Position numbers and translations under genes: made by a program. A DNA stretch of 12,896 bases from a virus (lineage: Duplodnaviria; Heunggongvirae; Uroviricota; Caudoviricetes), in IMG/VR virus record IMGVR_UViG_2700989170_000001, positions 1 through 12,896 of that record; one strand, 5' to 3'. Below, one piece after another: positions 3,692 to 6,419 of this stretch. How positions within the stretch are numbered: the stretch's first letter is position 1; the number at the start of each line of letters is the position of its first letter. The notes under the pieces are model-generated. The model was given only the letters and a program-made list of their open reading frames with translations, searched no databases and was not told the origin of the DNA.

Positions 3692-5128
3692 TCAGAATCC
3701 TCCTTTCTTCTTGGACTGCGGCTCCTCGCGTTCACGGCGGCGCATTTCAGCAGACTGTTGGTCTGTGTCATAAATAGCGCCATTTGCCTGAATGCAATAC
3801 ACCGTGCCGGTATTGCCATGACGATTGAGACGAAGGATTAGTTCGGTTTCACCAGGTGGAACACTGTCATCAAAAGCACCTTCACGATGGATCCCCACCC
3901 AATAATCGCAATCCTGTTCAATCTGCCCTGTATCTCGTGAGTCACTTGGTAATGGGCGTTTATTGGTTCGGCTTTCCAGTGCGCGGTTAAGCTGCGTCAG
4001 AAGCACAACAACGCAATCAAGCTCTTTGGCAAGGTTCTTCAGTCCTTTGGTGATCATGCCGTAAGCAAGGTCGTTGCGATCGGCCTTCTCAGCGGTCATT
4101 AGTGTCAGGTAATCGACCAGAATCATGCCAACACATCCTTTTTCTCGCTTGATTCGACGGCTTTCGCTGACGATTTGAGCCAGAGATAATCCCGGCGTGT
4201 CGTCGATGTAAAGCAGGTCGATTTCACTCAAACGATTAGCTGTTTCGATCGCCCTGTTGAAGTCACCATCGTAATCACCCTGATAGCCGTCATCAGCGTC
4301 ATTTGTCGCCGGAAGGTAAAAAATATTCGGGTTAACACCAGACTTCTGCCCTACCAGTTTTTCCAGTATCTGGTCTCCTGGCATTTCAAGGCTGAACATC
4401 AGAGCGGGCTTTTTCTCATGCACTGCGCAGTTGATTGCCATCTGGCTGTATAGCGTCGTTTTCCCCATCTTAGGGCGAGCGCCAATGACAAACAGAGAGC
4501 CTTTCACCAGACCTTTCGGTGACAGCATCCTGTCCAGCGATGGGATCCCTGTGCTCATTCCCCGTTGTTCGCCTGATGGGTCAAATCGCTTCTCAAGGTC
4601 GCTAACCCAGTCTTCCATGACCTCACCAAATGAGCGAAGTCCGCGACGCGATCCGGTTTTTGCATGGTCTGTCAGTTGCGTGAAAATCGCCTGAATAGCT
4701 TCGTACTTCTGCGTTGCAGTCATTCCGTTGCGGGAATAGAGCAATTCCGTCGCTTCAGTCATGCGGTTGATGGCGTAGCGTTCCATTGCGGTTTCACGAA
4801 CCTGCATTGCATAGGCAACGATGTTTGCTGCGCTTGGCGTGTTCTTTGCGATCTCAGCGATATAAGCAAAACCGCCAACAGACACCGTTAACGATTTGCG
4901 CTCCAGTTCATCGAAAAGCGTCAGGCCATCTACTGGCTTTTGCTCCCGGTGCATTCTGGTTATTTCTTCGAAAAGAATTTTGTGTGGTCGGCTGTAAAAT
5001 GAATCAGGCTTCAGCATCGCCAGAACTTTCTGGACGCGCTCACTGCTGTCATCATCCAGAAGCAATCCACCAATCACCGCCTGCTCTGCCTCGATGCTAT
5101 GGGGCGGCGCATAAAAATTATCGGTCAT
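3692..5128 (-). CDS. DnaB-family replicative helicase (P-loop; P22 gp12-like), about 478 aa
   Basis: The N-terminus has the DnaB-type motif PPHSIEAEQAVIGGLL; Walker A is GARPKMGKT; a Walker B-like ILVDYLTLM follows. The ATG at 5128 has SD GAGGGTG upstream; the ORF-track start at 5143 is a GTG. The start overlaps the stop of the O-like gene by 11 nt. Confidence 0.9.
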   Translation of the reverse strand: MTDNFYAPPHSIEAEQAVIGGLLLDDDSSERVQKVLAMLKPDSFYSRPHKILFEEITRMHREQKPVDGLTLFDELERKSLTVSVGGFAYIAEIAKNTPSAANIVAYAMQVRETAMERYAINRMTEATELLYSRNGMTATQKYEAIQAIFTQLTDHAKTGSRRGLRSFGEVMEDWVSDLEKRFDPSGEQRGMSTGIPSLDRMLSPKGLVKGSLFVIGARPKMGKTTLYSQMAINCAVHEKKPALMFSLEMPGDQILEKLVGQKSGVNPNIFYLPATNDADDGYQGDYDGDFNRAIETANRLSEIDLLYIDDTPGLSLAQIVSESRRIKREKGCVGMILVDYLTLMTAEKADRNDLAYGMITKGLKNLAKELDCVVVLLTQLNRALESRTNKRPLPSDSRDTGQIEQDCDYWVGIHREGAFDDSVPPGETELILRLNRHGNTGTVYCIQANGAIYDTDQQSAEMRRREREEPQSKKKGGF

Positions 5129-5879
5129 CGTGTTCACCCTCACGAACTTTCAGGTAGGTATTATCGTTAAGCAGGAAATCAAATCCCTTTTTGTGCCAGA
5201 CGGTTCCGCGTTGATGGTTTGGACGCTCTTCGAACATCCATCGGCAATTTTCGCCTACGTAGCTCAAATAATTTCTCCAGTCCTGCATCGTGAACCCATG
5301 CCCGTCAAGCTGGCGGGTTATCACTCCGGCTTTGCGCCAGAACGTTCGGATCTGGTTTTTACGCTTGTCATTCAGTGCGCGGATTCTTGGCGCTTCAGGA
5401 AGGATTTCGTGGTAAGCATCGACAACATCCTGACAGCTAACGGAAGGTTTTTTCTTGTCAGACTTTTTGTCTGCTGTGGCACTCTCTAATACGTCAGTAT
5501 TAGAGATATTATTTATATTATTGTTTATGGACAACCGTTGGACAACCGTTGGACAATTTTTTGCCTGAAAATCGTCATATTTAACGATTGTAAACAGGCT
5601 AAATTTCTTCCCCATCGAGCAAATATTAAGCATCCCTTTCGACTCAAAAGTCCGTAATAAGCTCCGAACTTTGTTGTCTGGAATGAATGTTTCTCTGACC
5701 AGCGACGGGCGTCCAGTTATCATCTGACCGCGATCAACAGTTATCGGACCGATATCCGTATTGACGACAGTAGATTCGTGATTAGCCTTGAGGATTAAGT
5801 GAAGCCAAAGATGTACTGCCTGAGAGTCCTTATAGAGCCTGCTGTCCATAAACTGGCGGTGTATAGAGACATACCCCAT
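5118..5879 (-). CDS. Replication initiation protein (O-like organiser, with internal iterons), about 253 aa
   Basis: The ORF sits immediately upstream of, and is coupled to, the helicase. It contains direct repeats and an AT-rich tract, like ori within lambda O. The favoured start is the ATG at 5879 (MGYVSIH...), which has AGGAGG 8 nt upstream; the ORF-track start at 5942 has no comparable RBS. Confidence 0.75.
   Translation of the reverse strand: MGYVSIHRQFMDSRLYKDSQAVHLWLHLILKANHESTVVNTDIGPITVDRGQMITGRPSLVRETFIPDNKVRSLLRTFESKGMLNICSMGKKFSLFTIVKYDDFQAKNCPTVVQRLSINNNINNISNTDVLESATADKKSDKKKPSVSCQDVVDAYHEILPEAPRIRALNDKRKNQIRTFWRKAGVITRQLDGHGFTMQDWRNYLSYVGENCRWMFEERPNHQRGTVWHKKGFDFLLNDNTYLKVREGEHDDR
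5528..5556. repeat. Iteron-like direct repeats (probable replication origin) inside the O-like gene
   Basis: GGACAACCGTT occurs twice in tandem, followed by a partial third copy GGACAA and then TTTTTT. The upstream flank (5498-5527) is AT-rich. This matches the lambda arrangement of iterons plus an AT-rich region within the initiator gene. Confidence 0.6.
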
Positions 5880-5928
5880 ACTGGATGCCTCCTGATGTTG
5901 TACAGGGTTATGCCTGTAATCAGCTAAC

Positions 5929-6090
5929 TTAACGACGCCCATGTTTCACTCCTGCTTTGGCTAGTCTGTAAACACCAACAAGGCGCTCTGCGAACGCCCT
6001 GTTATTTGCTGCGGCTACCACTAATCCCTCAGGTGAATCAGGGTGTCGAATCTCTTCTTTTTCCTGGTATTTCTTACGACGTTTTGTCAT
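5929..6090 (-). CDS. Hypothetical small basic protein (53 aa) between cII and the replication gene
   Basis: I translated this by hand: MTKRRKKYQEKEEIRHPDSPEGLVVAAANNRAFAERLVGVYRLAKAGVKHGRR. AGGAG lies 5 nt upstream of the ATG. It is below the ORF-track size cutoff. It occupies the position where lambda O begins and overlaps the OOP promoter on the other strand. Confidence 0.35.
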   Translation of the reverse strand: MTKRRKKYQEKEEIRHPDSPEGLVVAAANNRAFAERLVGVYRLAKAGVKHGRR

Positions 6091-6100
6091 AATTACTCCT

Positions 6101-6177
6101 GTGGATTGATCCAGTAATGACCTCAGAATTCCATCTGGATTTGTTCAGAACGCTCGGTTGCCTCCGGGCGTTTTTTA
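6101..6177 (+). ncRNA. oop: OOP-like antisense RNA with t0-type intrinsic terminator
   Basis: The plus strand has a 7-bp stem CGCUCGG/CCGGGCG (6151-6157 and 6164-6170, one G-U pair) followed by TTTTTTATT. The sequence from 6101 (GTGGATTGATCCAGTAATGACCTCAGAATTCCATCTGGATTTGTTCAGAACGCTCGGTTGCCTCCGGGCGTTTTTTATT) closely matches lambda oop/t0 as I recall it. It is antisense to the 3' end of cII. Confidence 0.6.
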
Positions 6178-6419
6178 TTGGTGAGTCCATCAAGCGCATA
6201 CTTAAAAGCCCTGCTAATCGGACTGATGTCTGATGCCATTCCGAAAGCACACAAGACCGAAGCAATAAATCTCCAGTCCGTTCTGCTTATCTTCGATTCA
6301 TGACAGCCAATCATCTTTGCCAGACCGCGCTGGGTAAGCGTTGACAGGTTGATGAGTAAATCTGTTTCTGCGCGATCAACGTCGCGCTGTGATAGTTTGC
6401 TGTAACTTGTTTGTTCCAT
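6123..6419 (-). CDS. cII: Transcriptional activator CII (98 aa)
   Basis: The C-terminus LTNKKRPEATERSEQIQMEF and the HTH region KMIGCHESKISR resemble lambda CII. It sits between cro and the replication genes. Confidence 0.85.
   Translation of the reverse strand: MEQTSYSKLSQRDVDRAETDLLINLSTLTQRGLAKMIGCHESKISRTDWRFIASVLCAFGMASDISPISRAFKYALDGLTNKKRPEATERSEQIQMEF

Follow-up and report, generated by a model that had tools for sequence, protein, structure and literature searches.

The window, i.e. the whole 12,896-nucleotide stretch of DNA that was analysed, carries on its minus strand a 53-codon open reading frame between cII and a replication initiator gene. The earlier note on this locus had described the ATG of this frame at 6090, the AGGAG 5 nt upstream of it and its end at 5929, and all of these lie where they had been placed. 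The order cII, small ORF, initiator had likewise been recognized and is borne out by family matches and coordinates: on the minus strand, cII (6419-6123), the small ORF, the initiator (5942-5118) and a DnaB-like helicase (5143-3692) follow one another in the manner of a lambdoid early-right operon. The features of the region, in ascending order of coordinates, are:

3692-5143, minus strand: DnaB-like replicative helicase of the P22 gp12 type, directly downstream of the initiator (Pfam DnaB_C, E 3e-60; DnaB, E 9e-31)
5118-5942, minus strand: replication initiator of the P22 gp18 / Sf6 gp43 type, 274 aa (phrog_345, E 5e-80)
5525-5556, minus strand: iterons of the in-gene origin, with TTGTCCA(ACGG) present three times and then an AT-rich stretch (from a pattern search and the sequence)
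5877-5893, minus strand: ATG inside the initiator frame (5879-5877), with AGGAGG at 5893-5888; it may serve the initiator as a secondary start
5929-6090, minus strand: small ORF with ATG at 6090, 53 aa, 6.1 kDa, pI 10.7, net charge +8; HK97 gp53 / Sf6 gp42 / ES18 gp58 family (phrog_1331)
5949-5953, minus strand: Shine-Dalgarno (SD) sequence AGGAG of the initiator, inside the small ORF and 6 nt before ATG 5942
6083-6115, minus strand: lambdoid "boundary sequence 5" (bsq5), 33 nt, ending at ATGACAAA, the mosaic junction with lambda
6085-6093, plus strand: pO-like promoter core, with TG at 6085-6086 and the -10 element CATAAT at 6088-6093, complementary to the sequence around the ATG of the small ORF
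6100-6096, minus strand: SD sequence AGGAG of the small ORF, with a 5-nt spacer to ATG 6090 (from the sequence and the alignment to lambda)
6101-6177, plus strand: predicted oop-like antisense RNA of 77 nt, 73 of which are identical in lambda oop, with a t0-like terminator hairpin at 6147-6174
6123-6419, minus strand: cII gene, 98 aa (Pfam Phage_CII, E 1.2e-34; translation; CII label in homologous records)

Identity and conservation of the small ORF

Judged from its sequence, the small frame belongs to the HK97 gene 53 family and was already known. Its product (MTKRRKKYQEKEEIRHPDSPEGLVVAAANNRAFAERLVGVYRLAKAGVKHGRR, by translation) aligns with all of its 53 residues to the whole of the 53-position phrog_1331 profile (E 1.4e-37) and is 100% identical to HK97 Gp53 (AAF31131.1), to Sf6 gp42 and to many other proteins. 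HK97 gp53 and Sf6 gp42 also agree with it in length, in their slot between cII/oop and the initiator and in the 14-nt overlap with the initiator gene. Nothing of substance differs except the neighbouring modules: in the window, oop and the 3' end of cII resemble lambda, the initiator is of the Sf6 type and the helicase of the P22 type. Further names within the family are epsilon34 gp49 and ST104 ORF27, and PHROGs lists the function of phrog_1331 as unknown.

The earlier note had taken the ORF to be unannotated. This proved wrong: it is HK97 gene 53, in public records since the HK97 genome (AF069529), and almost all related phage records label it, as does PGAP for RefSeq prophages. About 97 phage records list it as a hypothetical protein, the label that PGAP also gives it in RefSeq E. 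coli prophages, where the initiator begins at the overlapping ATG. By tblastn, the family is present in 97 phage records; it comprises 68 protein clusters, and the small protein has at least 466 matches in IMG/VR. A profile search of 1.84 billion representative proteins returned 24 matches, all of at most 84 aa, and in none of these 24 was the family fused to another domain. The window protein, with 53 aa, has the length usual for these stand-alone proteins, about 51-55 aa. Scans of the small protein against Pfam, NCBIfam and PADLOC gave 0 matches, and the literature that we searched contained no study of the function, expression or interactions of a family member; in the OLD preprint, HK97 is mentioned but the small gene is not. 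The HK75 record carries the note "similar to Bacteriophage HK022 gp53" on an HK97-type gene, which confuses two unrelated families.

An ORF of this size means little by itself, since the window contains 92 ORFs of at least 40 aa. The small frame could in principle be a chance ORF left by the mosaic junction, that is, non-functional sequence between oop and an initiator begun at 5879, which comes close to the reading of the earlier note. Besides the many window ORFs of this size, such a reading would account for the strong SD ahead of 5879 and for pN being about equal to pS between 5929 and 5879. The small ORF stands above chance, however, because it is conserved. In related prophages, where the earlier note had proposed to look, the 53-aa frame was conserved and unbroken in 21 of the 21 loci examined across Enterobacterales, down to 57% identity, and frame-disrupting differences were not found there; indels among the homologues comprised whole codons only. 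The homologue collection behind this analysis included a sample of 17 genome loci. The genomes with homologues are labelled Edwardsiella, Trabulsiella, Yokenella, Enterobacter, Citrobacter, Chimaeribacter, Serratia, Rahnella and Brenneria, with further homologues in Cronobacter, Erwinia and Enterobacter phages and two more records labelled Bacillota (a metagenome bin) and Chryseobacterium. The single-member database clusters P0058 and P0064 are among the few with local frameshift-like stretches, as is expected for decaying prophages.

Within the family, 155 pairs whose dS exceeded 0.3 gave Nei-Gojobori dN/dS ratios of 0.05-0.34, with 0.15 as the median, variable bases were in excess at the third codon position (53, 40 and 114 at positions 1, 2 and 3), and six residues are invariant (L23, A27, F33, A34, R36, R52). 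By these comparisons the small frame is a genuine gene whose protein sequence evolves under purifying selection. Such selection on a frame that is unbroken in 21 loci across many Enterobacterales genera, the full-length match to the family profile, and the retention of ATG 5942 and of the residues LADYR through synonymous changes, including in initiator types that have no other start, all speak against a chance ORF. We give that reading almost no credence and regard it as effectively refuted by the conservation data. Taken as a whole, the locus is very probably best explained as a genuine gene of the HK97 gene 53 family in a conserved slot between oop/pO and the initiator.

The junction with lambda and the oop-like RNA

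Nucleotide identity to lambda is near-complete through the 3' end of cII, oop and the SD and reaches 8/8 over ATGACAAA; just past this element it falls to 15/60, which is the chance level. An alignment to lambda around cII, oop and O, which had been suggested as a check, thus located the breakpoint. At the homologous position, the Sf6 record carries the label "bsq5; boundary sequence", and alignments to lambda, HK97, HK629, HK75, epsilon34 (eps34) and ES18 likewise place the boundary sequence here. The mosaic junction that the earlier note had suspected is therefore there, at ATGACAAA, whereas its further idea, that this junction left or created the small gene, failed on the age of the family, its dN/dS and its spread over many genera. 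The small gene belongs to an old family and is not a by-product of the junction, which is the known boundary sequence 5.

The alignment also confirmed that ATG 6090 is the positional equivalent of the lambda O start codon, as had been proposed, and lambda O uses the same SD element as the small ORF of the window. In lambda this ATG opens O itself, whereas in the window it opens the small gene and the initiator begins 148 nt further on. The slot was described long ago for lambda-like phages, and the gene in it is ordinary for lambdoid phages other than lambda rather than new. Hayes et al. (2012) described the layout cII-oop-"orf"-O-P, in which lambda is without the orf, and included a homologue of HK97 gp53 among the ORFs that begin at this ATG (PMC3349717); the legend of Fig. 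S1 in the same paper covers the bsq5 boundary. Among lambdoid phages, lambda is the exception without the small gene (PMC3349717): P22 and HK022 fill the slot with orf48, the window and HK97 fill it with gp53, and lambda has neither. In epsilon34 and ES18, a cassette consisting of the small gene and MGVVKLADYRPLEPVV (16 initiator codons) stands in place of lambda O codons 3-17 (alignment; PMC2629481). This cassette is otherwise flanked by lambda-like sequence, and from about codon 18 onward O in these two phages is lambda O, with 91-94% amino acid identity.

On the plus strand, the resemblance of 6101-6177 to lambda oop/t0 had already been seen in the earlier note and is upheld by the identity of 73 of 77 positions, by the fold and by the terminator. 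The RNA is predicted to form the two hairpins and U-tail of lambda oop (dG -27.6 kcal/mol, z -3.35), and a scan for intrinsic terminators found the hairpin at 6147-6174. It overlaps 55 nt of the cII 3' end (6123-6177), and in lambda the overlap of oop with cII is also 55 nt (PMC3349717); the -10 element and the SD/ATG are identical as well. The HK629 record calls the equivalent element "similar to lambda oop RNA". An Rfam scan of the whole window, with E values up to 1, gave no match; the identification comes from the alignment to lambda. The putative pO-like promoter keeps the -10 element with its upstream TG. Its -35 region (6064-6070), which falls within the diverged sequence, differs from lambda pO and matches poorly (TGGTAT or CTGGTA), and the promoter scan found no full sigma-70 match at pO. 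A hybrid pO of this kind, with the lambda -10 and a foreign -35, has been described in a lambda/P22 hybrid (PMC3349717).

The small ORF had been thought to lie opposite the oop-like RNA. We find that the RNA is located entirely upstream of the SD of the small ORF, and that only the -10 region of pO overlaps the first codons of the ORF.

The start of the initiator gene

As had been observed earlier, the initiator frame, when begun at 5942, overlaps the 3' end of the small ORF; the overlap comprises its last 14 nt (5942-5929). The earlier note had nevertheless favoured a start at 5879, where an ATG lies 50 nt past the stop of the small ORF with AGGAGG 8 nt upstream. Comparison of the loci speaks against this choice. 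In every locus examined (21), an ATG corresponding to 5942, with GGAG or GGGG ahead of it, lay in the +1 frame about 11-14 nt upstream of the stop of the small ORF. In contrast, the Met at 5879, although kept in the Escherichia-type gp18-like initiators, is replaced by Lys in the initiators of P22, HK022 and Brenneria. Just past the overlap, the codons for L-A/S-D-Y-R/Q vary synonymously (GAT/GAC, TAC/TAT; for Arg, AGG/AGA/CGG/CGT/CGC) while these residues are retained, which shows that the initiator frame is translated there.

In initiators of the HK97-gp54 / lambda-O type, these alignments leave the equivalent of 5942 as the only plausible start. Begun there, HK97-gp54-type proteins have HRVAD at residues 18-22 and an N-terminal length that matches lambda O, in which ERNVAD occupies residues 19-24. 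A comparable N-terminal extension of ~24 aa is found in phage L (P22-like), HK022 and a Brenneria prophage, and phage and PGAP records begin the initiator at the overlapping ATG. The initiator thus most likely starts at 5942 and not at 5879. In practice, this means that the small ORF should be kept in the annotation and the initiator begun at the overlapping ATG 5942. Over the 16 codons from the stop of the small ORF to 5879, pN is about equal to pS and dN/dS is uninformative; given this and the good SD before 5879, a secondary internal start is possible, from which a second, shorter isoform of the initiator may be made.

A programmed frameshift joining the small ORF to the initiator was considered and rejected. 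Inspection of GTG AAA CAT GGG CGT CGT TAA revealed no slippery site; the initiator lies in the +1 frame, and fused proteins were absent from the databases searched.

Codons 1-10 of the initiator (5913-5942, MGVVKLADYR) contain x-V-V-K-L, a succession of hydrophobic, hydrophobic, basic and hydrophobic residues like T-A-K-I in lambda O. More widely, in our reading of the ClpX motif, MGVVKL resembles TNTAKIL of lambda O. The lambda O tag is a ClpX N-motif-1 degron (PMC12723719), and by analogy the N-terminus of the initiator might be a ClpX degron as well, which would need the start at 5942.

Replication modules and possible roles of the small protein

The initiator of the window is identical to Sf6 gp43 at every aligned position and is without 22 aa (VQRLSNANTSNGAALSGDCPTA). 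The corresponding 66-nt deletion relative to Sf6 is located between the two iteron clusters of the in-gene origin: the Sf6 record has 3+3 copies of TTGTCCAACG[GT], labelled rep_origin, of which the window keeps 3. The short form of the initiator also occurs in an E. coli prophage (L028) with a helicase pseudogene.

In 26 diverse loci and in 80 IMG/VR loci, the next gene downstream of the small gene was an initiator, with the exception of a single IMG/VR locus that had no match to any of three initiator queries. The initiators downstream of it are of the gp18 type or of the lambda-O/HK97-gp54 type; upstream, cII/c1 occurs in several variants, and some loci have no detectable cII.

This pattern bears on a possible role in the lysis-lysogeny decision. 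The small gene follows directly after cII, lies beside the oop promoter and is of about the size of lambda CIII (54 aa), and it might therefore be a modulator acting with cII and oop, e.g. a cIII-like small inhibitor or stabiliser, and not a replication factor. It is, however, physically and evolutionarily tied to the start of the initiator and not to cII, the same protein being found beside several divergent cII/c1 variants and in loci without a detectable cII, and profile and family searches showed no similarity to any known regulator. Since the small gene is inherited with the start of the initiator and not with a type of cII, we consider a lysogeny modulator very unlikely.

Where a helicase was found in the 106 gp53 loci, three of which end too soon for this survey, it was phage-encoded and belonged to one of two DnaB-like subtypes (29% mutual identity) or was a T7-gp4-like primase-helicase (in ES18 and epsilon34); lambda P was present in 0/106. 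Conversely, none of 80 loci with lambda P had a gp53-type or orf48-type gene, and their cII-O gap measured 36-38 nt. This complementarity between gp53 and lambda P is suggestive only, because the samples consist of related, non-independent genomes, and the association of gp53 with helicase-carrying modules could be due to linkage alone. The small gene is common to three different initiator-helicase pairs, which disfavours a specific contact with any one helicase.

Similarly, the distribution helps to judge whether the small gene is a host-directed accessory or counter-defence gene, comparable to a moron, that occupies the slot by happenstance. Its product is small, basic, phage-restricted and without a known domain, and the gene is located at a recombination hot spot, the boundary sequence, which is a frequent site of accessory genes. 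Yet it has neither a promoter nor a terminator of its own, overlaps the initiator gene and is highly conserved rather than variable, and its absence from 80/80 sampled lambda-P modules agrees better with a role tied to the module than with a general role. It also had no match in PADLOC, the library of which covers defence and not anti-defence proteins. On balance, we judge such an accessory gene unlikely.

In P22, L and HK022, the slot is filled by a different small gene, orf48 (48 aa; DUF2740, PF10872; phrog_1913), which is named gp53 in HK022 and hkaW in HK620. It shares with the gp53 family the slot, the ATGACAAA SD/ATG context, a similar size, a basic charge (median pI 10.1, versus 10.7 in the gp53 family, where the median net charge is +8) and a stop that overlaps the start of the gp18/O initiator (by 8 nt, versus 14 nt), and it, too, occurs with phage-encoded DnaB-like helicases. 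Homology between the two families was considered and rejected, with an hhalign probability of 0.5% and membership in separate Pfam and PHROG families; the Pfam scan yielded no DUF2740 match for the window protein. By these profile comparisons, P22 orf48 is a positional analogue of the gp53 family and not a relative. In the sampled modules with their own helicase, the initiator has as its neighbour either the widespread gp53-type protein or this unrelated analogue.

PHROGs calls phrog_1913 a "tail protein" (L029:987-1133, L030:1011-1157). This label is implausible because the gene, with 48 aa and in the early operon, overlaps the replication initiator, and it is probably an annotation error. 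For P22 orf48 and DUF2740, too, the literature that we searched contained no functional study; the "orf48" (gnarl1) of PMC12373910 appears to be numbered by a scheme internal to that paper.

For the structure of the small protein, AF2 with the family alignment predicts residues 1-20 to be without secondary structure and helices at 21-29 and 31-49. Confidence is moderate (mean pLDDT 70, pTM 0.39), with pLDDT values of 80-89 in the helical region. The tail formed by residues 1-20 is first basic, then acidic. In the helices, L23, A27, N30, A34, L37, Y41, A44 and V48 are conserved at a spacing of 4, 3, 4, 3 and so on, like the stripe of a coiled coil or of packed helices. Foldseek searches with the model against PDB and BFVD gave no matches, as is expected for a helical model of 53 aa.

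From the layout, the small gene would be transcribed from pR, downstream of cII. Its stop beside the initiator start would couple the translation of the two frames, such that both proteins are made together. This coupling is suggested by the geometry alone, because no conserved mRNA structure that would hide the initiator SD was found; RNAalifold shows only a 7-bp hairpin elsewhere in the ORF, and the mRNA fold around the initiator SD is weak. Coupling may not be obligatory either, since the initiator has a good SD of its own.

The act of translation alone might be what matters here, with the small ORF as a cis-acting leader that delivers ribosomes to the initiator start or unfolds it, perhaps tying it to the oop/cII-mRNA duplex, and with a functionless peptide. 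Such leaders exist in IncFII and IncI plasmids, namely in tap/repA (R1, CopA) and repY/repZ (ColIb-P9, Inc RNA), where the stop of a short ORF overlaps the initiator start and a cis antisense RNA lies directly upstream. In agreement with this, the stop/start overlap was kept in every locus examined, two unrelated ORF families have the slot and the overlap at the initiator, and the 5' end of oop abuts the SD of the small ORF. The analogy ends with the antisense RNA, which in the window would target cII and not the ribosome binding site of the leader. Further, a pure leader needs no amino acid conservation, whereas this "leader" is a conserved protein with a dN/dS of 0.15 and six invariant residues. 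The initiator SD is exposed, 6 nt from its own ATG in weakly structured mRNA, and lambda does without any leader. A function of translation in cis alone therefore seems to us decidedly improbable.

We return to a role for the protein itself. The product would be a very basic 6-kDa protein in which a charged N-terminal tail, predicted to be unstructured, precedes helices that span 30 residues and bear a heptad-like hydrophobic stripe. Because it is too small and featureless for an enzyme, it probably acts by binding. We tentatively propose, as a real possibility more than an expectation, that it serves the replication module as an accessory which binds the initiator, the nucleic acid of the origin or a host replication factor, and that this concerns modules with their own helicase.

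A broader version of this proposal is speculative and, in our estimate, rather unlikely. The small basic proteins of the slot, gp53 and independently orf48/DUF2740, would be dedicated cofactors of lambdoid modules with their own helicase, serving in helicase loading or licensing at the origin or in the silencing of the host replisome; alternatively, their translation would link initiator synthesis to oop. In lambda, which hijacks host DnaB via P, the gene would have disappeared when its start codon was fused to O.

In the mRNA of the small ORF, the segment 5976-6004 (minus strand; codons for NNRAFAERLV) forms a predicted 13-bp hairpin in the window. Its 7-bp core was predicted in 19/19 aligned homologues, with one base pair (columns 118/132) that swaps between G-C and C-G; the consensus energy of -4.2 kcal/mol makes this weak evidence. 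The hairpin may represent a small element of the RNA or DNA, or it may simply follow from the conservation of the F-A-E-R codons.
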